The position numbers were made by a program, and so were the translations under genes. The notes beneath the pieces are model-generated. The model worked only from the letters and a program-made list of their open reading frames with translations. It was not told where the DNA came from and did not search any database. DNA of 64,000 nt, from contig JBEKFP010000001.1 of assembly GCA_050013255.1 (NCBI GenBank), positions 576,001 through 640,000 of the forward strand. Reading direction: 5' to 3'. Shown one piece after another: positions 2,203 through 48,902 of this stretch (positions are counted from its first letter, which is position 1; each line of letters opens with the position of its first letter). Source of the DNA: Candidatus Bathyarchaeia archaeon. GTDB taxonomy: Archaea; Thermoproteota; Bathyarchaeia; 40CM-2-53-6.

Positions 2203-3246
2203 TTGGACCTAAGCCTCTATAAAACGGTCGTCAAGCCGGCCCTATTTCTGACGCCCCCCGAAACGGCTCACGGTATTGCTAAATGGTTCTTCAAACGGCC
2301 ACTGCTCTGGAATACGTTGAGTTGGCACTTACGCATTCAAGATGATCGGCTGCACGTAAGAGTTGGAAAACTCGACCTCCCTAACCCCGTGGGACTCGCC
2401 GCGGGTTTCGACAAGAACTGCGAGATGTCCGCGGCACTGTTTAACATGGGGTTCGGATTTCTCACATTGGGTACTGTTACCCTGAATCCTCGAGAAGGTA
2501 ACCCGAAACCTAGAATGTGGCGATACCCTCAGCGGTCGCTCGTAAACTCAATGGGGTTACCGAACGAAGGAGCGCACAAGATAGCGGTCACCCTGTCCAA
2601 GTGCAAACGCAGCCCGGGGCCGATAATTGTTAGTATCTCCGGGCTTAGCATCGACGAGTTTGTCGAATGTTATCGTGAACTGGAACCTCGGGCAGATGCC
2701 GTTGAGTTGAACATTAGTACTCCAAATACGGTTGGCGTAAGGATCTTCCAAGAACCTGATGTACTCACGAAACTGCTCAGTGCGGTTAGTAAGGTGAGAA
2801 ATGTTGGGAAACAGGTTTGGGTCAAGATTCCACCCTACTTCGATGTTAGACAACGGGAGAACGTTCACAACCTCGTGGACGCGTGTGTGAAGGCTTCTAT
2901 CGACGGGCTCACCGCAACTAACTCGAAACTCATCGACGAGCCTCGGGCCAGCATTGGGACAGGTGGGCTTAGTGGCCCATTAATCTTCCAAGACATGCTC
3001 AGAATAGTCACGGACGTTTACAATCACACTGGCGGAAAGGTCCCCATCAGCGCCTGCGGTGGCATATCCTCAGGCCTTGACGCCTGGCGGGCCTTGAAAG
3101 CAGGTGCATCTTCAGTCCAACTGTACACAGGGCTGATCTATGAGGGGCCTGGCGTCGTCTCAAGAATCAATCGAGACATACTCCGAATGCTTGAGAGCTC
3201 GAAGCTGAATTCGCTCAGCGAAGTAACAGGATCCGGCTTACGCTGA
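2203..3246 (+). CDS. pyrD: Dihydroorotate dehydrogenase, class 2 (quinone-dependent)
   Basis: PETAH, NPVGLAAGFDKN, GNPKPR, LNISTPNT, GGLSG, QLYTGLIYEGP motifs. Confidence 0.93.
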   Translation: MDLSLYKTVVKPALFLTPPETAHGIAKWFFKRPLLWNTLSWHLRIQDDRLHVRVGKLDLPNPVGLAAGFDKNCEMSAALFNMGFGFLTLGTVTLNPREGNPKPRMWRYPQRSLVNSMGLPNEGAHKIAVTLSKCKRSPGPIIVSISGLSIDEFVECYRELEPRADAVELNISTPNTVGVRIFQEPDVLTKLLSAVSKVRNVGKQVWVKIPPYFDVRQRENVHNLVDACVKASIDGLTATNSKLIDEPRASIGTGGLSGPLIFQDMLRIVTDVYNHTGGKVPISACGGISSGLDAWRALKAGASSVQLYTGLIYEGPGVVSRINRDILRMLESSKLNSLSEVTGSGLR

Positions 3247-3315
3247 AACTCAAAGAAAGAAATCATTCGCAAAGCCTTACTTAAGACGGTATGTCCCTCC
3301 CCACGATGATCATCG

Positions 3316-3912
3316 TTGCCACCCATTAACGGATCACTAAGTCCAGAATGGTACGCTGAAGACTTTGTGAAGCAACTTCACCTTGACGATGAAGTAGAGC
3401 AGAGATGTGAGTGGTCCTGCATCCTCTGGTCCAAGGACTACTGGGCTGCCAAGGCCCAGAAGACCCAGATAACATTGCAACAGATCAAAGACCCCCTCAC
3501 AAAGTCTACAAGGACTGAGAAGACCTACAGTCCGCTTTTCCTGGATTCTCAATTTGCGAACACCATAGCGCAGGTCTACGCGAAACTCTTTGGCACCGAG
3601 CAATCCTGCAGCGTGAAAATTTTCACTAATTGTCCCTTCATGGGACAACGCCAAGACTTGCTTAAGAGAGGTACCTTGGCCGGGGTTTTTGCTACGATCC
3701 TTCACAAAGCCACATCATACGCGATGCTTGAACGGCATCCACTAGATAGCGGCCTCATACACGAGGAGTATAGGGATGTTTATGGAATCGACCTGACCAA
3801 CTTCAAGGACTTGGAGAACTCCCTGAAGGATGGCAGGTTCGGAAAATTGTATGAGAACGTGGTGAAGAAAGCCAGAGAGCTGGCAGGAATACCTCAAGAG
3901 CCTGCCATTTGA
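3316..3912 (+). CDS. Hypothetical protein
   Basis: 198 aa ORF filling the gap; no family recognised. Confidence 0.55.
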   Translation: MPPINGSLSPEWYAEDFVKQLHLDDEVEQRCEWSCILWSKDYWAAKAQKTQITLQQIKDPLTKSTRTEKTYSPLFLDSQFANTIAQVYAKLFGTEQSCSVKIFTNCPFMGQRQDLLKRGTLAGVFATILHKATSYAMLERHPLDSGLIHEEYRDVYGIDLTNFKDLENSLKDGRFGKLYENVVKKARELAGIPQEPAI

Positions 3913-3926
3913 TAGCCACGGGAAAT

Positions 3927-4211
3927 CTATTCCTTAACTCCGTAGATGGAATATACCAAGATCAATAGACCTACAGCAACAACTGAATTTTCTAAGGCGT
4001 GAGCCAGAATTAGCTGGTAACCAAGCACCTCCACAATAAATTCCTCGATTAGAGAGCCCACGAGAATGACCATGAACCCGATCGACATAGCGAGCATAGA
4101 TTTGCTCTTGTTCCTGCGGTAAGCTCTCATGCTAACGTAAACCAGCACACCCCCGAGAGCGACAATAGCGGCCTCACTAGATAGAAGTACCAGATCGTCG
4201 AAACCGATCAT
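3927..4211 (-). CDS. Small 3-TM membrane protein (DUF7521-like partner of an HTH regulator)
   Basis: RAYRRNKSKSMLAMSIGF...GLLILVYSIY pattern; ATGA overlap with the regulator stop at 4208-4211. Confidence 0.75.
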   Translation of the reverse strand: MIGFDDLVLLSSEAAIVALGGVLVYVSMRAYRRNKSKSMLAMSIGFMVILVGSLIEEFIVEVLGYQLILAHALENSVVAVGLLILVYSIYGVKE

Positions 4212-4570
4212 TTCTCCGCCCTCATGGAACTCCACAGCCTAGTTAACTTGTTCACGACATCTTCGTTAAATGAAACGGTTAGCTCAACCTCTCCTGATTT
4301 GTACTCGGCGCGCATGTCCGTCACTGTGTTCCTATAGAGACCGAATTTTTTGCCGTCATTCGTGATGACTGTTCGTTCAACAGTAAGAAGACGGGCGTCG
4401 ACGAGCTCATTTATTCGCCGATACACGCTGCTCGGAGGCAAGGCACATTGATGGATGATCTCCATTGCTGAGCAAGGCTTCTCGGTAGTACTTCTTAGGA
4501 TTGCCAATGCACAATCATCCGCCATCGCCTGCAAGATTGTTTTCTTAAGGGCCGTATCCTGAATAAGCAA
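4208..4570 (-). CDS. ArsR-like winged-helix transcriptional regulator
   Basis: ILQAMADD..LAIL, SAMEII, PPSSVYRRINELVDARLL helix-turn-helix; divergent from the cupredoxin operon. Confidence 0.85.
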   Translation of the reverse strand: MLIQDTALKKTILQAMADDCALAILRSTTEKPCSAMEIIHQCALPPSSVYRRINELVDARLLTVERTVITNDGKKFGLYRNTVTDMRAEYKSGEVELTVSFNEDVVNKLTRLWSSMRAEK

Positions 4571-4597: not shown

Positions 4598-4675
4598 AGA
4601 TTTGATAGGCGTCTTCCTGATTTAAGTGTGCGCGCTCCACCCCCATCCCACTCATCCGCTCTGAGAGGCATCGGA

Positions 4676-5320
4676 TTGAAGAATGGATTTGTCGCGATCC
4701 TGCTTGTCCTAATACTGTTGATAGGGCTCGCTGCGGGTTGGCTTGGCGGGAGCATAGGCCTGGTAGGCAAGAACCTGTACTCCAACCAAAGTCAGACTGC
4801 CTCCGTAACTCCACCCGCAACGCTTGACACTACTAAAGTTGTCAATCTTGTTGTCATTCCGGATTGGGGAGGAACAGGCTATGACGCGTTTGTGGTTTCC
4901 ACGTCCGTCAATGGCACAGCTCCCGAACTCGCGACGAATGCGAGTGGCCCAGGACCTAACGACAATAACATAACCATCCACGCGGGCGTCTCAGTCACTT
5001 TTGTAATAACCAACATAGACACCGCAGTCCTCCTGAACTTCACGGGCCCCGCATCAACAGACTTCACTGTTTACAATGATACTGAGAACGGTCAAGTAGC
5101 GTCGCACTATAGTGCCGGGCAGTCGGTCTCCAGCCTTCCAATAAGCCACACATTCACAATCCAGAGCCTTAACGTCAACATCCCGATTCCTCCGGACACA
5201 GTTGTCACCTTCACCTACACGTTCGTCACACCGGGTGTCTACAAATACTTCTGCGAAACCCCTTGTGGACCGGGGATGGACCTTGCAGGATACATGATTG
5301 GATATCTAATTGTCACTTGA
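4676..5320 (+). CDS. Membrane-anchored cupredoxin-fold protein with atypical Cu ligands
   Basis: N-terminal TM; SHTFTI...YTFVTPGVYKYFCETPCGPGMDLAGYMIGYL. TTG at 4676 preferred; ORF opens at 4628. Confidence 0.8.
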   Translation: MKNGFVAILLVLILLIGLAAGWLGGSIGLVGKNLYSNQSQTASVTPPATLDTTKVVNLVVIPDWGGTGYDAFVVSTSVNGTAPELATNASGPGPNDNNITIHAGVSVTFVITNIDTAVLLNFTGPASTDFTVYNDTENGQVASHYSAGQSVSSLPISHTFTIQSLNVNIPIPPDTVVTFTYTFVTPGVYKYFCETPCGPGMDLAGYMIGYLIVT

Positions 5321-5373
5321 CTGGAATGAACCCATTGAATTATGATAATGCTCTCAAATTGCTTTGAGGGAAC

Positions 5374-6186
5374 TTGATGTCAAGACGACCACGAATTGAA
5401 CGTAGACAACTCCTGAAGGGCACGGCGGTCGCTACAGCTGGCCTGGTATTTTCTTCCCTCGTGAAAGGGTTGGAGCCCGTAAGTTCACAAACGTTAGAAA
5501 ATGCTTCTGCAATGAAAGGCTCAGCAAGACGATACGTCTTCGTTATCGACCTAGACAAATGTGACGGATGCAGGAAATGTACTGAGGGTTGTCACGCGGA
5601 GATGCATGTACCACCTGCCTGGGGAGATCCGAATTATGAGGGCAAGCAGCCTTGGATACAAGTCTTCGATTTCGCTGATGGGACCCATATGCCTGTTCCT
5701 TGTCAGAACTGTCAGAATTCACCCTGCACGAAAGTCTGCCCCGTCGGGGCGACTTACTACAGCGAAGACAACATCGTGCTGATAGACCAGAATAGATGCA
5801 TAGGCTGCAGAATATGCCTAGCATCATGTCCCTATGAGCGCAGATTCTTCAACTGGTACGACCCTCCAGTCACCGAAGAGGAGAAGAAGATACCGTATTC
5901 GCCTGACTACAACATCCCTCATAGGAGAGGTGTTGCCGAAAAATGCGTCTGGTGCAGACACAGAACTAAGATGGGTATGGTGCCTGCCTGCGTCGAAGCC
6001 TGCACAAGAGCAGGTATGAAGGCACTTTGGTTCGGCGATGCGGCTCAGGATGTGGTGTCCAATGGTGTAGATACGGCTAGGTTGAGTACTATGATTCAAG
6101 GGAGAGGCGCTTACCGGTTCAAGGATGAGTTGGGGACGAGCCCAAGTGTCCTATACCTTCCGCCCAGAGGAGGTACAATTACGTGA
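5374..6186 (+). CDS. Tat-exported 4x[4Fe-4S] electron-transfer protein (NrfC/DsrO/QrcC/ActB FeS-domain family)
   Basis: ERRQLLK Tat signal; CDGCRKCTEGC, CQNCQNSPCTKVCP, CIGCRICLASCPY, RGVAEKCVWC, PACVEAC. Confidence 0.92.
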   Translation: MMSRRPRIERRQLLKGTAVATAGLVFSSLVKGLEPVSSQTLENASAMKGSARRYVFVIDLDKCDGCRKCTEGCHAEMHVPPAWGDPNYEGKQPWIQVFDFADGTHMPVPCQNCQNSPCTKVCPVGATYYSEDNIVLIDQNRCIGCRICLASCPYERRFFNWYDPPVTEEEKKIPYSPDYNIPHRRGVAEKCVWCRHRTKMGMVPACVEACTRAGMKALWFGDAAQDVVSNGVDTARLSTMIQGRGAYRFKDELGTSPSVLYLPPRGGTIT

Positions 6187-8111
6187 GCTCAAGTTCGACA
6201 TCGAAAAGCGCCGCACTTTTCGGACCAATCAAGAGTCACTCTTCATCTTCCTATGCCCTAGGAAGCACTCTTCTCGCAATTGCTCTGTGGGGCGTTTACG
6301 CATACTATGTTCAAGTGACGACTGGACTGGGAGTCACAGGAATGAGGTCCGTCGTGTCATGGGCCTTCTACATAATCAATTTCGTCTTCTTCATAGGCAT
6401 AAGCCATGTCGGCGCTTTGATGTCTGCAATACTTAGACTCACAAATGCAGAATGGAGGAAACCAATCACTAGGATTGCCGAGGTGGTTACTTTCTCGTCA
6501 TTAATGATGGCGGTCATGATGCCATTGATCGATCTCGGGAGGCCAGATAGGCTGTTATACACGATTATTTTTGCTAGATTTCAGTCCCCGTTAACCTGGG
6601 ACTTTATGGCAATCGGAACTTACATGATCGGGAGCACCATCTTCTTGTATCTTCCGATGATTCCAGATATCGCATCATGCAGGGACAAATTGGAAGACGC
6701 GTCTAAGTTTCGCAGGTGGCTTTACGGGAAGCTCTCCTTAGGTTGGAACGGTTCATCCGATCAATGGAGACACCTTGAGAAGGCGATTAAGATGATGTCA
6801 ATCATAATCATACCCATCGCCATCTCGGTACACACGGTCGTATCTTGGGATTTTGCCATGCTGTTCAGAACGGGTTGGAACAGCACAATCTTCGGCCCGT
6901 ACTTCGTAGCGGGCGCATTGTTGTCCGGTGTTGCAACCGTAATTTTGGTAATGGCTTTTCTCACCAAGTACTATCATTTGGAAGGCTATATCACGAAACG
7001 GCACTTTGATAATCTCGGAAAACTCCTGATAGCCCTTGACATCATCGTCATCTACTTCACTATAAACGAGAATCTTGTCCCCGGCTACAAGTTCTTCGAT
7101 TCATCAAGCCCTGAAGGGCAATGGATGGCGTCCCTACTCTGGGGTCAGTACTCGACATTCTTCTGGGTTCAACTCATTGGCGGACTCGTGATTCCAGCAT
7201 TTCTGATAGGGCTACCTCGCACAAGAACTATAACCGGATATCTCGTCGCGTCATTGCTTGTCGACGTTGGGATGTGGATTGAACGCTTCAATATTATTGT
7301 GCCAACCCTAGCCCTTCCACAGCTAAGTTACTCATGGGGATCGTACGTACCGACTTGGGTGGAACTCTCAATTGTCGCCGGCACCTTCGCGGGTTTTACT
7401 CTCATCTACTTCGTTTTCAGCCGCCTGTTTCCGGTCATCTCAATCTGGGAAACGGAAGAGCCGAGTGAGGCAAATCCAACGGTCTTCTCGCCACCGTCTA
7501 TGAGGTTGACACTGCAAACTAAGTCTACATCGTCAATGGCGGCGTCCAAGAGAAGCTTCCTGAAATACGGAACGTTTGCAATCGTAGGTTTCGCATTGGG
7601 ATTTGCTCCAATACAAGTTCCAATCAGACCATTGAACTCAAGCGGAAATCGTTCTTCCGTCCCTGTGGTGCCTTTGTCGAACCTCGGGGTAAGTGTCTCG
7701 CTTGCCGAAGCAAAGAAAGCTATTGGGTTCTCAATTTCAAAGCCAACTAAACTTCCGCTAGGAAGCAAGCTGAAGGATGTGAGGGTTTTGGGAGGCAATC
7801 ATATCGTGTCGTTAATTTACGAGAATCCGTTGACCAAGCCACTTTCCTTGTACAATGAAGATGTTGCACTCGTCATCATTCAAGCGCAGGACTCGTTTAA
7901 TGTCACTTCTCCAGCTTATTTGCCGTCTGAATTTATACGAGTTAATGTCGCGGGAAACATTGGCTTCGCAAGAGAACCAAGCCAAGTTTCGGGTGGTGTA
8001 ACTGAGCCTGGCCAACTTCAATGGTGGATAAACGGTGTCCGTTACGCAATATTCGCTGACAGCACGATTAACGAGATGACGAAGACGGCCGAATCCATGG
8101 AGGCGCTTTAA
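6183..8111 (+). CDS. NrfD/PsrC-family quinol-interacting membrane subunit (ActC-like) fused to a C-terminal DUF4367-like domain
   Basis: NFVFFIGISHVG, DLGRP, SPLTWD, SVHTVVSWDFA, GWNSTIFGPYFVAGA, GMWIERF, YVPTWVE; GTGA overlap with the upstream gene; about 200 extra C-terminal aa. Confidence 0.9.
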   Translation: MSSSSTSKSAALFGPIKSHSSSSYALGSTLLAIALWGVYAYYVQVTTGLGVTGMRSVVSWAFYIINFVFFIGISHVGALMSAILRLTNAEWRKPITRIAEVVTFSSLMMAVMMPLIDLGRPDRLLYTIIFARFQSPLTWDFMAIGTYMIGSTIFLYLPMIPDIASCRDKLEDASKFRRWLYGKLSLGWNGSSDQWRHLEKAIKMMSIIIIPIAISVHTVVSWDFAMLFRTGWNSTIFGPYFVAGALLSGVATVILVMAFLTKYYHLEGYITKRHFDNLGKLLIALDIIVIYFTINENLVPGYKFFDSSSPEGQWMASLLWGQYSTFFWVQLIGGLVIPAFLIGLPRTRTITGYLVASLLVDVGMWIERFNIIVPTLALPQLSYSWGSYVPTWVELSIVAGTFAGFTLIYFVFSRLFPVISIWETEEPSEANPTVFSPPSMRLTLQTKSTSSMAASKRSFLKYGTFAIVGFALGFAPIQVPIRPLNSSGNRSSVPVVPLSNLGVSVSLAEAKKAIGFSISKPTKLPLGSKLKDVRVLGGNHIVSLIYENPLTKPLSLYNEDVALVIIQAQDSFNVTSPAYLPSEFIRVNVAGNIGFAREPSQVSGGVTEPGQLQWWINGVRYAIFADSTINEMTKTAESMEAL

Positions 8112-8112
8112 G

Positions 8113-9090
8113 GTGCGAAGTGCGCCTGCCCTAATTGTACTGTTCACATTCTTCTTAATCCTTCAATTCGCAAATGCAACAGCAGCGTCGAGTCAATTGA
8201 CGGACATTTCTGGAAACCTCACGGTCTTCAACCTCACGCCAAGCAGCAATGAAACAGGAGTTAGGTATTTCACAGTCCTCGTGAGCGCCTCAGGATTCAA
8301 CGGCTCGCCTAACCCATTCTACCTTCAGGTAATTCAGGGCGATCGAGTCGATATCCGGTTCATCTATGCCGACCAAGACCTCTCTTTCGATAACCCTCAC
8401 AAGATGCTCATTGGTGGATACAACATTGTGACGGGCAATGTTGATAGACAGATACCAGTACAGGAAGTGAATTTTACTGCAAGTCAAGTTGGGAGTTTTG
8501 CATTTTATTGCATTATTCCATGCTTCGGCATGGAGAACCTGCAGGGAGGCTTCCTCGTTGTGAGTGCTTCAACGCGGACAGCGCCCGTCTCAACTAACCT
8601 TAGCCAATTGAATGTCGCAGCACGTGGAAATGTCATCACCGTATCGGTACTTCTTGCCAATAAGAACGGAGCCCCTATATCTGGTGCAATCGTAGAATTC
8701 TCTGTAAGCAGCGACTTTGGTCAAGTGAAGATGGGCCAGAATACGACTGGCTCCGATGGAACGGCCCAACTTTCTTTTCCGTTGAGTACCCCCAGAGCAA
8801 TTTTTGTGACAGTACATTTTGCAGGCAGCGGTCAATACTTGCAAAGCCAGACGGCAATCTCGTTCATTCCTCCGCCTCAGCAAACCGAGCCAACCCTCGA
8901 GTCGCCTTATGTCAACGGACAGGCACCAAGCGTCGATATTCGACTCGCGGGTATCCTACCCGTCCATTCATTGATCATCGTAACAGTGGGTTTGATTGTT
9001 GTCCTATCGGTATGGTGCGTATACGCACTCGTCTTGAAGGAAGTAGTGGGGGTTTGGAAGGCTGGCAAAACAATGGAGGAAGACAAATGA
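8113..9090 (+). CDS. Secreted cupredoxin-like plus Ig-like domain protein with C-terminal TM anchor
   Basis: Signal peptide; QGDRVDI, NPHKML, GSFAFYCIIPCFGM; TTGSDGTA Ig-like motif; C-terminal TM. Confidence 0.72.
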   Translation: MRSAPALIVLFTFFLILQFANATAASSQLTDISGNLTVFNLTPSSNETGVRYFTVLVSASGFNGSPNPFYLQVIQGDRVDIRFIYADQDLSFDNPHKMLIGGYNIVTGNVDRQIPVQEVNFTASQVGSFAFYCIIPCFGMENLQGGFLVVSASTRTAPVSTNLSQLNVAARGNVITVSVLLANKNGAPISGAIVEFSVSSDFGQVKMGQNTTGSDGTAQLSFPLSTPRAIFVTVHFAGSGQYLQSQTAISFIPPPQQTEPTLESPYVNGQAPSVDIRLAGILPVHSLIIVTVGLIVVLSVWCVYALVLKEVVGVWKAGKTMEEDK

Positions 9091-9608
9091 ACGATAAGCA
9101 CCTAGCTGTAATTACACCGCTCATACTCCTCGCCATAATGGTGGCCTTCACACAGACTCAGATAGTGCCCATATGGCTCACCGACCACCGCTCATCACTC
9201 GAATCCTCGCTGCCCGATGTCTCGGGCCTGCAATTAGTGGGCTACAATTTCAACAGAGATCTCGTGCAAGTCTCAGTCACGCTATGGAACAGAGGTACCA
9301 GCCCTCTGAACATAACTGCAATTTACTTCGACAACGTGAAACTCATCAAAGGAACAGTTGGATCCCCAACAGATCCCACAATTATCGGGTCTACGCCTGA
9401 AGGAAACCTTTCGATTACTTCAAACGATATTGTGTTCCCAGCTAGCTCCCGGTGGAACATGTTCACCGGGGGCGGCAACATACCCATCATTCAGCCTAAC
9501 GGGTTCGTTACGCTTTTCCTAGGCGTCTCATCGCCTACGCCTGGCTCCATGCACACGCTGATTGTTCTCGCAGGAGCCCAAGAGTTCGTTTTCGAACTTC
9601 AGAGATAG
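9087..9608 (+). CDS. Membrane-anchored beta-rich hypothetical protein, last gene of the coupled operon
   Basis: ATGA overlap at 9087-9090, GGAGG at 9075; N-terminal TM; VTLWNRGTSPLNITAIYFD. Confidence 0.7.
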   Translation: MNDKHLAVITPLILLAIMVAFTQTQIVPIWLTDHRSSLESSLPDVSGLQLVGYNFNRDLVQVSVTLWNRGTSPLNITAIYFDNVKLIKGTVGSPTDPTIIGSTPEGNLSITSNDIVFPASSRWNMFTGGGNIPIIQPNGFVTLFLGVSSPTPGSMHTLIVLAGAQEFVFELQR

Positions 9609-10688: not shown

Positions 10689-10794
10689 CCATTGGTACGG
10701 GCAAGGGTCTTGTTGGTCTGCCTTCGAACAGAAGAAAGTATTCAAATACGGTGTGTTGATTCTAACGGCGTATATTTCAGGCCGTGTGTTGAGC

Positions 10795-12009
10795 ATGGTT
10801 GATGGTTGGTCCCCTCCCAAAAATGCGAAAATTTGGGGCCATTTGTTCAACGAAGTGGTCCGTGCAAAGCACTGCATGATGTGCGGCGCCTGCGTCGCCT
10901 CATGCCCGATTAATGTTCTCAACGTGAATGTAAATGAAGAACCAGTCATCAAAGGACCATGTGCCGCCTGCCAGGTTTGCTATTACAGCTGCCCCAGGCT
11001 GGAGTTTCCTTTGGATGAAATTGAGTACTACTTGTTCGGTAGGACTCGGAAACCCGAAGAAGAGTCACTGGGGATTTACAGGAATATTTACTCCGCGAGA
11101 GCGTTGGACGAGGAGATTTGGCATGCAGGCCAAGATGGCGGAACCGTAATAGCGCTAATGACCCACGCCCTCCAAATAGGACTGATTAACTCCTTCGCCA
11201 CATCAGACTTCACGAAATCTAACTCGGTCTTCGTTCTTGGCAACGGAATGACCCTCAAGACAGTGCCCGTAGTAGGGGATACTGCAGCCGACCTAATTCG
11301 AACAGCCGGTTCGAAGTACACTCATGGCGGCGTTCTCGGCGTCTTGTCCGACGCCGCCGCATCATACCCCGATGGGCGAGTTGGTTTAGTTGCCCTTCCG
11401 TGCGAACTACAGGGACTATGGCGAATGTACACATCGCTGCAGGCCACGGTGAAATTTGGTGGCTCTTGGATCAGAGGTGGAAGACCAGTTCTAACAGTTG
11501 GGTTGTTCTGCTCGAAAGTGTACACACACGACCAGCTCGTCACCGAATTTATCCAAAAGAAACATGGGATAGACCCTGCAAAGATTACTAGGACGGTTGT
11601 CAAGAGGAACCGGTTCAAAGTCTACGTCGGAGCCGACCCCGTCCTCGACGTTAACATCAAAGAACTTGAGCCATACATGAGCCAACCGTGCCATTACTGC
11701 ATCGACTACGTTGCCGAATTGGCGGATATTTCGGTTGGCGCAGTCGGTTCAGCTGACGGCTGGACAACCGTTATCGTGCGTTCGGAAATGGGACAGAAAT
11801 TATTCGATAGCGCGGTCAGGTCCAAGGTCATCGAAGCTGCTCCTATAGAAATGGTCAAACCCACCGGACTACCATTCCTTGTTAAGCTCTCTAACAAGAA
11901 GAAACGGGAACGCAACGCATACTACCTGAGGCGGGGGTTACGCGAAGGGTTCCTTGAGCAAAGAAAACATGAACTCCTCCAAATTACCCCTGTCCCGACA
12001 GCCCAATGA
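10795..12009 (+). CDS. Coenzyme F420 hydrogenase/dehydrogenase beta-subunit family protein (FrhB/FpoF-like)
   Basis: N-terminal 2x[4Fe-4S] (CMMCGACVASCP, CAACQVCYYSCP), GQDGG, AGSKY, LPC, GLFC, CHYCIDY.AELADISVG, GWTTVIVRS. ORF opens at 10753. Confidence 0.9.
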   Translation: MVDGWSPPKNAKIWGHLFNEVVRAKHCMMCGACVASCPINVLNVNVNEEPVIKGPCAACQVCYYSCPRLEFPLDEIEYYLFGRTRKPEEESLGIYRNIYSARALDEEIWHAGQDGGTVIALMTHALQIGLINSFATSDFTKSNSVFVLGNGMTLKTVPVVGDTAADLIRTAGSKYTHGGVLGVLSDAAASYPDGRVGLVALPCELQGLWRMYTSLQATVKFGGSWIRGGRPVLTVGLFCSKVYTHDQLVTEFIQKKHGIDPAKITRTVVKRNRFKVYVGADPVLDVNIKELEPYMSQPCHYCIDYVAELADISVGAVGSADGWTTVIVRSEMGQKLFDSAVRSKVIEAAPIEMVKPTGLPFLVKLSNKKKRERNAYYLRRGLREGFLEQRKHELLQITPVPTAQ

Positions 12010-47900: not shown

Positions 47901-48902
47901 TTGACTACGAAGATGCGATTACCACCACGAGAAGCTTTCTTCATCGCTGGCCTCGTGATCATATTGCTTCTGGCAGCCTTCATCATGAACGTTAGCGCCT
48001 CGGCGAAAACTGCCCAAACGACAACTACGAGAAACGTAATCATTGAATGGACGAAAAACCTGAGTGACCAGGATAGGTTCTATCCGGATTTCATAATAGT
48101 AAACCAGGGTGACACAGTTGCCCTCACATTCATCAACAATGATACGGTCGTTCATGATTTTGTAATTGGCCCTCCATACAATATTATGGTGAATGCTTCA
48201 GTCCCCGGCCTGCACGATGACATCACGGGCCAACTAATGACCTCGGCCGCAACACGAAACTCACCCGGGGTCGTCGTTTCAGGTACTCCGGGCAATGTTT
48301 CAGCCACGTATACCTTCATGGCAAAGTATGCTGGTATCTTTGAGTATGTGTGCACGTACCACATTCAGGTCGGCATGATTGGTTACATGGTCGTTCTCGC
48401 ACCAAATACATCCAGTATAACCCAACCCACAAGCCCCAATCAAACGGTGTCCCAAAGCTCAACGGTGATTCAGGTAAGCATCGACCCTGGGTCGGGTACT
48501 AACGTCAACTTGCCGGGCTATACGCCTACGGACCTGACGATTGTCATCGGAGTCAACAACACGGTGAAATGGACCAACAACGACATCATGCCACACACGG
48601 TTACTGCGACGGATGGAAGTTTTGATTCAGGGAACATTAACCCTAGCGGCACATACGTTTACACTTTCACTAAGGTGGGTGTTTACCAGTACACTTGCTC
48701 GTACCATAATTGGATGCATGGTACTCTGAATGTTGTGACTGAAACGATTGGCCAAGAATCCCAAGAACATGGAGAATTCAGCATCGTCCTGACGGCATAT
48801 GAGATCTACGGAATAATCGGATTCGGAATAGTTGCGTTACTAGCAATCATGATGGTAATTGGGAGGACAAAACGCGCAGGCGAGCGAACCACGACCGCGT
48901 AG
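47901..48902 (+). CDS. Tandem type-1 (blue) copper protein, membrane anchored
   Basis: Two plastocyanin-like sites: HDF...CTYHIQVGM and PHTVT...CSYHNWM; N- and C-terminal hydrophobic segments. Confidence 0.88.
   Translation: MTTKMRLPPREAFFIAGLVIILLLAAFIMNVSASAKTAQTTTTRNVIIEWTKNLSDQDRFYPDFIIVNQGDTVALTFINNDTVVHDFVIGPPYNIMVNASVPGLHDDITGQLMTSAATRNSPGVVVSGTPGNVSATYTFMAKYAGIFEYVCTYHIQVGMIGYMVVLAPNTSSITQPTSPNQTVSQSSTVIQVSIDPGSGTNVNLPGYTPTDLTIVIGVNNTVKWTNNDIMPHTVTATDGSFDSGNINPSGTYVYTFTKVGVYQYTCSYHNWMHGTLNVVTETIGQESQEHGEFSIVLTAYEIYGIIGFGIVALLAIMMVIGRTKRAGERTTTA

Follow-up and report, generated by a model that had tools for sequence, protein, structure and literature searches.

What takes up the electrons when an iron-sulfur (FeS) protein and an NrfD-type membrane subunit are encoded next to copper proteins, with neither a molybdenum enzyme nor a cytochrome c in the same operon? 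This question is raised by five co-oriented open reading frames (ORFs) on the + strand, from 4628 or 4676 to 9608, of the window analysed here, a stretch of 64,000 nucleotides (G000:C1:576001-640000) from a Bathyarchaeia genome of 2.46 Mb in 3 contigs (100% complete, 8.55% estimated contamination). A preliminary description of the locus had proposed an Alternative Complex III (ACIII)-like quinol oxidoreductase in which copper proteins replace the cytochromes as electron exit. By our analysis the products of the five genes most likely form a single membrane complex, and we are largely confident that a copper-linked complex with an FeS subunit and an ActC-type membrane subunit is encoded. The complete proposal, a quinol:cupredoxin oxidoreductase feeding an oxidase, is one to which we give slightly better than even chances.

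The membrane subunit is of the ActC type by sequence, fold and functional residues. It matches Pfam PF03916 with 111.1 bits (cut-off 25.8; E 1.1e-31) over residues 51-376, and every long ActC-type signature quoted in the preliminary description (NFVFFIGISH, SPLTWD, LSLGWNGS, SVHTVVSWDFA, STIFGPYFVAGA and GMWIERF) was located where it had been placed. The assignment itself was made from ranked PDB sequence and fold matches together with NCBIfam scores. In a phmmer search against all PDB sequences, ActC chains take the first four places, one from each solved ACIII (E 3.6e-68 to 2.4e-63); ActF is found at 2.3e-8, and PsrC was undetected at an E-value of 0.01. Built with 46 homologues, the AlphaFold2 (AF2) model (pLDDT 74) places ten helices ahead of residue 425, the number that marks the ActC type (8 core helices plus A and B), and Foldseek gives it TM-scores of 0.79-0.83 to ActC, 0.64-0.69 to ActF and 0.53 to PsrC, the fold alignment with ActC covering about 400 columns at roughly 31-35% identity. 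The functional residues agree with both rankings: when those listed for Rhodothermus marinus ActC (PMC8076601, Table 2) were mapped onto the HMMER alignment, 19 of 23 proved to be retained, comprising three of the four quinol-site and 16 of the 19 proton-path residues. In R. marinus numbering, Ser164, Asp169 and Asp253 of the quinol site are kept here and are invariant in 69 long homologues, that is, NrfD homologues that carry a C-terminal extension. In the proton half-channels (13 N-side and 6 P-side residues) three positions differ, T100 being replaced by A, Y323 by T and E338 by G, the last with an adjacent Glu; H97, S103, R114, R119, E122, T125, S164, D169, Y176, S180, D191, D197, H247, D253, Y270, E394 and R395 are invariant or nearly so in the long homologues. 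The closest named record is from a metagenome-assembled genome (MAG) labelled Candidatus Bathyarchaeota (93% identical). The genome holds one further NrfD gene, in an operon for a molybdenum bis(pyranopterin guanine dinucleotide) (Mo-bisPGD) enzyme, whose product is a 37% identical paralogue with ActC again as its best, though weaker, match (E 1.8e-37). ActC-likeness therefore belongs to a wider archaeal clade and is no proof of ACIII function.

The FeS protein has 270 amino acids, Fer4 and TAT as its only Pfam domains, a twin-arginine translocation (Tat) motif, RRQLLK, at 5401-5418, and 16 Cys in four groups, from which four [4Fe-4S] clusters are predicted. Among the NCBIfam models it scores 176.5 bits against DsrO (cut-off 200) and next 134 against QrcC (cut-off 400), then TtrB and NrfC; the NrfD protein reaches 117.2 bits against DsrP (cut-off 350) and 61.4 against QrcD (cut-off 570), so that no operon protein attains the curated cut-off of DsrO, DsrP, QrcC or QrcD. 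In the PDB the FeS protein matches PsrB (E 1.3e-25) and the FeS domains of ActB, and it shares with ActB, but not with PsrB, an insert of about 25 residues between Cys groups III and IV. Group III, CIGCRICLASC, has all four Cys, whereas ActB of 6F0K and 8K9E lacks the second, and the cluster bound there is predicted to be [4Fe-4S] and not the [3Fe-4S] of ACIII. That the protein carries a Tat signal itself is consistent with export in the absence of a Mo subunit; its paralogue in the Mo operon has no export signal of its own.

Two cupredoxins had been claimed for the operon, and fold and ligand matches bear this out with the qualification that both are best read, from their ligand patterns, as CuA-type (COX2/NosZ-like) and not as blue-copper proteins. 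Cupredoxin A, anchored through residues 21-39, matches Pfam Cupredoxin_1 weakly at 22.6 bits, under the cut-off of 27, and also matches the NosZ CuA region. Its candidate ligands are H174, C209, C213 and M217 (numbered from the GTG at 4628), with the metal loop CETPCGPGM at 5252-5278. In an alignment with its orthologues and the genome's own COX2, H174, C209 and C213 are invariant, and position 217 is Met here and His in all four orthologues, one of which, from locus L023, has the canonical CTIPCGPGHSQM and is the sole one with the complete Cx3Cx3Hx2M motif. In the AF2 model of cupredoxin B, a cupredoxin beta-sandwich (about residues 50-151) is followed by an immunoglobulin (Ig)-like domain (161-251), identified by Pfam as Big_1, and by a helix (283-324), with pLDDT 83-93 in both beta domains. 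Its candidate ligands are H96, C133, C137 and M140, with the loop CIIPCFGM at 8509-8532; H96, C133, C137 and G139 do not vary across 14 homologues, column 140 holds either Met or His (the latter in the HR01 and Caldarchaeum copies), and the family keeps a Cx3Cx2(H/M) spacing with no Met at +3. Foldseek matches the two-domain model to generic multi-cupredoxin enzymes (multicopper oxidases, NirK) at a TM-score of about 0.25, which fits the fold class and not a subtype. The CuA subtype of cupredoxin B rests on hhalign, which aligns it with the cupredoxin A/COX2 alignment at 98% probability (E 5.5e-14) with coincident ligand columns. Thus the upstream His and the two Cys of the Cx3C loop are present in both window cupredoxins, and the full Cx3Cx3Hx2M, with second His and axial Met, is in neither, Met standing at the second-His position. 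The exchange of Met and His exactly at this column in both families argues that it is a metal ligand and that the sites are of the CuA type.

Two parts of the module lack a recognisable relative. The C-terminal extension of the NrfD subunit is modelled by AF2 as a helix (456-473) and a folded domain (498-637) with pLDDT 82-90. The domain has no conserved Cys or His among the 46 homologues and no match in Pfam (E 0.1) or the PDB (E 5), the Atlas giving a weak match to DUF4367 (score 0.77), and we take it to be structural. Residues 455-461 (7545-7565), just before this eleventh helix, read SKRSFLK, with SRRxFL as the consensus of the 46 homologues and R457 invariant; the likeness to a twin-arginine motif suggests that Tat may insert the last helix and the outer domain after Sec/YidC has inserted the first ten helices. 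The small subunit likewise has no match in Pfam (E 0.1) or the PDB (E 5). It shares only structural residues with its positional homologues in L003, L021 and L022, and since no Cys or His is conserved it is probably structural too.

The organisation of the genes was read directly from the sequence and is as the preliminary description had it. The FeS/NrfD junction is a GTGA overlap, in which the GTG at 6183 overlaps the TGA at 6184-6186, with GAGGAGG ahead; the NrfD gene ends with TAA at 8111 and the cupredoxin B gene starts with GTG at 8113, leaving a 1-nt gap at 8112, and an ATGA overlap (9087-9090) joins cupredoxin B to the small subunit, both with GGAGG ahead. By these junctions the last four genes are translationally coupled. 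The start of the FeS gene is most likely the ATG at 5377, its ORF opening at a TTG at 5374, and the cupredoxin A gene has possible starts at TTG 4676 and GTG 4628. The same order, cupredoxin A, FeS, NrfD with extension, cupredoxin B and small protein, recurs in three MAGs, each with an opposite-strand regulator upstream: archaeon HR01 (L003; NrfD 57% identical), a Thaumarchaeota MAG (L021; 69%) and a Caldarchaeum MAG (L022; 60%). Two further loci, L023 and L024, have a partial order with a shorter NrfD (53-54% identical), keeping the FeS, NrfD and Ig-protein genes together with a DUF7521/helix-turn-helix (HTH) pair and, in L023, also PyrD. In L024 (2959-5792) the place of cupredoxin A is held by two large proteins of 429 and 515 residues without a Pfam match, and a TatA gene follows the Ig-domain protein. 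Both cupredoxins thus keep their place with the FeS and NrfD genes in archaeal lineages that are far apart. Of 400 genomes sampled from the phylum, five, belonging to two families, were found to encode a full-length cupredoxin B, and dozens of full-length clusters (300-400 residues) came out of a profile search of 1.84 billion cluster representatives. The closest bacterial NrfD that we found, also of the ActC type and 47% identical, comes from a Deltaproteobacteria MAG (L002:3-5744), where its gene is clustered with those for a Mo-bisPGD-like subunit, an FeS protein encoded separately, a protein of 88 residues, a c-type cytochrome and a protein with an EB_dh haem domain. This cluster is another uncharacterised exit module on the same core, so the ActC-type core appears with different exit modules.

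A catalytic or haem partner encoded elsewhere was sought throughout the genome. Neither the operon nor the syntenic loci include a Mo-bisPGD subunit. The only Mo-bisPGD gene (PF00384) of the genome lies about 700 kb from the module. Its operon is complete, including FeS, NrfD and TorD-like genes of its own, and MobA/MobB lie alongside. A genome that carries the module (G098, 93% complete) has no PF00384 match. A Mo partner acting from another locus was rejected on these two grounds. No subunit corresponding to ActF, the second NrfD-like protein of ACIII, was found, the NrfD gene of the Mo operon being the sole other one. The five operon proteins contain no CxxCH motif, as had been noted before; in the whole genome no cytochrome c maturation gene (Cytochrom_C_asm, CcmF/CcsA) and no multihaem ORF was found, two CxxCH motifs occurring in one ORF of 66 residues. 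The entire organism being without cytochrome c, the freedom from cytochromes is not special to this operon.

On the acceptor side, NirK, multicopper oxidases (Cu-oxidase_3) and the NosZ catalytic domain were not found in the genome and were rejected as acceptors. One haem-copper oxidase operon (COX2, COX1, CtaA, COX3) is present, and its COX2 has a complete CuA motif, CTQFCGTGHYTM, so that the oxidase needs an electron donor on the outer face; this CuA-bearing oxidase is the likely acceptor. All five other carriers of the module have COX1 and one cytochrome b, against a base rate for COX1 of 131 in the 400 genomes of the phylum sample, and among 56 sampled genomes of families in the same order or class as the host (f2-f12) COX1 occurs in one. 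Bathyarchaeia are generally regarded as an anaerobic class, and the host seems to be one of its rare members that respire oxygen. Its COX1 (G000:C2:699213-701300, L008) scores like that of family f24, which also holds module carriers, and the respiratory genes could have been jointly acquired by horizontal transfer. A quinone pool is implied by a quinone-dependent PyrD, a succinate dehydrogenase (SDH) and three Rieske/cytochrome b pairs, the existence of which led us to reject the module as the sole complex III. One Rieske/cytochrome b pair adjoins SDH, another a canonical CuA cupredoxin and a UbiA-family gene, and the third an EB_dh protein. Three more CuA-type cupredoxins are encoded in the genome (G000:C2:236143-236940, +; C2:226151-226747, -; C1:1260201-1260704, -): one is a paralogue of cupredoxin A, also without the second His (CLTPCGFGPTGM), one has the canonical loop CTIFCGAGHGDM and lies beside a Rieske/cytochrome b pair, and one has the loop CNIFCPVHPYM. 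Within the window, the gene at 47901-48902 (+) specifies a protein of 333 residues in which a tandem pair of type-1 (amicyanin/plastocyanin-like) cupredoxin domains, with the loops CTYHIQVGM and CSYHNWM, is followed by a membrane helix at the C-terminus; so anchored, this protein is a candidate for carrying electrons between the quinol oxidases and the oxidase. With several CuA-type and type-1 cupredoxins and the Rieske pairs, a copper-based outer-face chain seems general in this organism, and the module would be one of several possible quinol oxidases.

It is proposed that the ActC-type subunit binds and oxidises quinol at the outer membrane face, beneath the Tat-exported FeS protein, and that the electrons would then climb the four [4Fe-4S] clusters. 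The CuA of cupredoxin B would accept them, raised by the Ig stalk and the C-terminal helix to what is presumably, from the general architecture of Psr and ACIII, the height of the distal cluster. From there the CuA of cupredoxin A, anchored blue-copper carriers, or both may pass them to the CuA of the oxidase. The two membrane-tethered cupredoxins would thus stand where ActA and ActE sit in ACIII, or the Mo-bisPGD subunit in Psr-type enzymes. The retention of the ActC proton-path residues suggests a coupling of quinol oxidation with the release or translocation of protons, such as has been proposed for ACIII. As to the earlier claim that copper proteins replace cytochromes as electron exit, the ActC core, the synteny and the absence of a free Mo or cytochrome c partner support it, and the flow from quinol to copper is what we infer from them. 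It is also possible, at somewhat less than even chances, that the module represents a third, energy-conserving kind of 'complex III', free of haem and Mo, in which an ActC-type proton-translocating subunit and a [4Fe-4S] chain lead to binuclear CuA on anchored cupredoxins, His-to-Met variants included, and in which the eleventh helix and outer domain may be added through an internal twin-arginine signal.

Several observations weigh against a quinol:cupredoxin oxidoreductase feeding the oxidase. A predicted [4Fe-4S] cluster replaces the high-potential [3Fe-4S] that ACIII has beside its quinol site, an arrangement that resembles quinone-reducing and low-potential systems. The fourth quinol-site residue, His139, is Asp in the window protein, as in 35 of the 69 long homologues (His in the other 34); together with the predicted all-[4Fe-4S] chain this would be compatible with electron flow in either direction. 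Both window cupredoxins have Met for the second His, and their predicted copper sites imply neither nuclearity nor potential. Genetic linkage between the module and the oxidase is lacking, the two being on separate contigs of a bin with 8.55% estimated contamination, and the co-occurrence of the module with haem-copper oxidases, resting on about three lineages, two of them in families in which all sampled genomes are aerobic, is suggestive and not statistical. Finally, the transfer of electrons from quinol to copper is already covered by the three Rieske/cytochrome b pairs.

The same complex could be given other tasks. It may be a quinol-driven reductase for a substrate on the outer face, such as Cu(II), Fe(III) or an unrecognised partner enzyme, in which the cupredoxins or the novel domains are reactive and the ArsR-like regulator perhaps provides a link to metal sensing. 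The conservation of a divergent ArsR-type HTH gene and the two conserved outer domains without known fold match would suit such a function, but these domains have no conserved Cys or His, CuA centres transfer electrons and are not catalytic, and HTH_20/DUF7521 is a generic pair that is repeated around the L023 and L024 modules; we consider this reading unlikely. A shade less probable is a reversal of the electron flow, by which a Qrc-like cupredoxin:quinone reductase would take electrons from a donor that is extracellular or on the outer face and pass them, by way of copper and FeS centres, to the quinone pool. Its attraction is that all four predicted clusters are [4Fe-4S], as in QrcC, PsrB and HybA and not as in ActB with its [3Fe-4S], that QrcC, QrcD, DsrO and DsrP are the only NCBIfam models matched, and that three Rieske/cytochrome b pairs already oxidise quinol. 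Quinone reduction would be strongly uphill, however, CuA centres lying about 250 mV or more above menaquinone; moreover, no enzyme oxidising a substrate on the outer face is found nearby or recognised in the genome, the module is seen only in genomes with an oxidase, and the ActC-type residues tied to quinol oxidation are conserved.

Much less weight attaches to explanations in which the cupredoxins are not electron exits. A device for copper handling or CuA assembly, with Cx3C cupredoxins that serve as chaperones of Cu(I) or as thiol-disulfide proteins and that quinol, via the FeS chain, maintains in the reduced state, could account for the adjacent metal-type regulator and for loops whose Cx3C and Met/His residues suit Cu(I), in a genome whose many CuA proteins need metallation. 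Yet the upstream His and the loop align ligand for ligand with the redox-active CuA of COX2, conserved proton-path residues are not expected for a chaperone, and no Sco, PCuAC or TlpA-type genes occur in the operon, which makes such a role highly improbable. We give least credence to an ordinary NrfCD-type anchor whose catalytic Mo-bisPGD or multihaem partner is encoded elsewhere, with the cupredoxins as bystanders. The L002 cluster, where the closest bacterial relative keeps company with a Mo-like subunit, a c-type cytochrome and an EB_dh haem protein, is what one would cite for it, as is the ActC-like NrfD paralogue of the genome's Mo operon. Against this, the lone Mo subunit comes with a chaperone and an FeS/NrfD pair of its own, G098 has the module and gave no match to PF00384, the genome yielded no gene for cytochrome c maturation, the FeS subunit has a separate Tat signal, and the genes for the cupredoxins show both translational coupling and synteny across lineages.

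Coordinates of the five-gene module and its divergent neighbours in the window
Feature	Position	Strand	Properties
DUF7521 small membrane protein	3927..4235	-	overlaps the regulator gene; Pfam DUF7521, E 7.3e-19
HTH_20 winged-helix regulator, ArsR-like	4208..4570	-	divergent from the module; Pfam HTH_20, 29.3 bits (cut-off 27)
Cupredoxin A	4676..5320	+	N-terminal membrane anchor; putative CuA-type (COX2/NosZ-like) cupredoxin
Tat-exported FeS subunit, NrfC/DsrO/ActB2-like	5377..6186	+	16 Cys; RRQLLK
ActC-type NrfD membrane subunit	6183..7500	+	10 transmembrane helices; quinol-site and proton-path residues
NrfD C-terminal extension	7545..8111	+	SKRSFLK; eleventh helix; alpha/beta domain of about 150 residues outside the membrane
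Cupredoxin B	8113..9090	+	signal peptide; putative CuA-type cupredoxin; Big_1 stalk; linker; C-terminal membrane helix
Small subunit	9087..9608	+	N-terminal anchor; beta-rich outer domain

The genes around the module are partly conserved. The divergent regulator pair recognised earlier consists of the HTH_20 and DUF7521 genes; an HTH gene is also divergently placed upstream of the module in L003, L022 and L023, and the DUF7521/HTH pair adjoins the module in L023 and L024, with two to three copies around each. The nearby class 2 PyrD of the preliminary description is indeed the quinone-dependent form, exceeding two curated cut-offs (TIGR01036 with 228.7 bits against 200). PyrD, an unannotated protein of about 190 residues and the HTH/DUF7521 pair occupy 2203-4570 of the window and likewise lie upstream of the module in L023 (1813-5584). 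Downstream, 1.1 kb from the operon, the window encodes an FrhB/FdhB-family protein (10753-12009, +) that resembles the beta subunit of F420-dependent oxidoreductases, with a 4Fe-4S dicluster and no evident link to the module.

Complexes of the NrfD family have been catalogued with haem, Mo-bisPGD or NiFe partners. A full-text literature search, from which subscription journals are mostly missing, turned up no account of cupredoxin subunits in an NrfC/NrfD or ActB/ActC module, and a 2021 survey of 15 complex types of the family mentions neither copper nor cupredoxin (PMC8076601). The module is thus probably an undescribed copper-wired route from membrane quinol to a terminal oxidase. If true, a copper-only exit would add a new type of module to the NrfD family and help to explain how quinol is linked to CuA-type oxidases in archaea that make no cytochrome c. 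It would also offer a minimal two-subunit core in which to study the ActC-type coupling of quinol oxidation to proton movement in ACIII. For the tuning of copper sites, the His/Met exchange at a CuA ligand position amounts to a natural experiment, and an apparently oxygen-respiring Bathyarchaeia host bears on the ecology of soil archaea.

Among known systems the nearest is ACIII (ActABCDEF; PDB 6F0K, 6BTM, 6LOD, 8K9E), a quinol:cytochrome c, HiPIP (high-potential iron-sulfur protein) or auracyanin oxidoreductase that reduces the blue-copper auracyanin through its haem subunits. The module shares with it the ActC-type subunit, with ten helices and 19 of 23 functional residues, and an FeS subunit that resembles the ActB2 domain, including the insert between Cys groups III and IV; in both the redox centres lie outward. 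The pentahaem ActA, the monohaem ActE, the second NrfD protein ActF and the Mo-like ActB1 domain are missing from the module, which is predicted to hold [4Fe-4S] where ACIII has [3Fe-4S]. In their stead it has two predicted CuA-type cupredoxins, an Ig stalk, a fused C-terminal outer domain and a small beta subunit, and its host is an archaeon. Of the ACIII-like character first proposed, the resemblance of the ActB2/ActC core therefore stands and membership does not: the module is NrfD-family or ACIII-like, outside ACIII proper. A copper protein, auracyanin, is a known acceptor of ACIII in Chloroflexi (PMC7439408, PMC10873879).

PsrABC and the other Mo-bisPGD/NrfC/NrfD enzymes (Ttr, Dms, Arr) likewise have a 4x[4Fe-4S] protein on an NrfD-family anchor. 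The module differs from them by having no Mo-bisPGD subunit, a Tat signal on the FeS protein itself and ten plus one helices, and its anchor is distant from PsrC. DsrOP of DsrMKJOP and QrcCD of QrcABCD, which provide the best NCBIfam models, have in common with it a Tat-exported FeS protein on a ten-helix NrfD subunit, but DsrJ, DsrK, DsrM, QrcA and QrcB are not present with the module. For the copper proteins the points of reference are the CuA domains of COX2 and NosZ, with which the cupredoxin fold, the upstream His and the Cx3C loop align; in those enzymes CuA is found inside the oxidase or NosZ, whereas here it would be borne by stand-alone anchored subunits, with Met as the second His in the host. 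In Sulfolobales and Thaumarchaeota, Rieske/cytochrome b complexes with copper-protein acceptors lead electrons from quinol through a copper protein to a haem-copper oxidase with no cytochrome c. The role proposed here for the module is the same, and the module would fulfil it with unrelated machinery.

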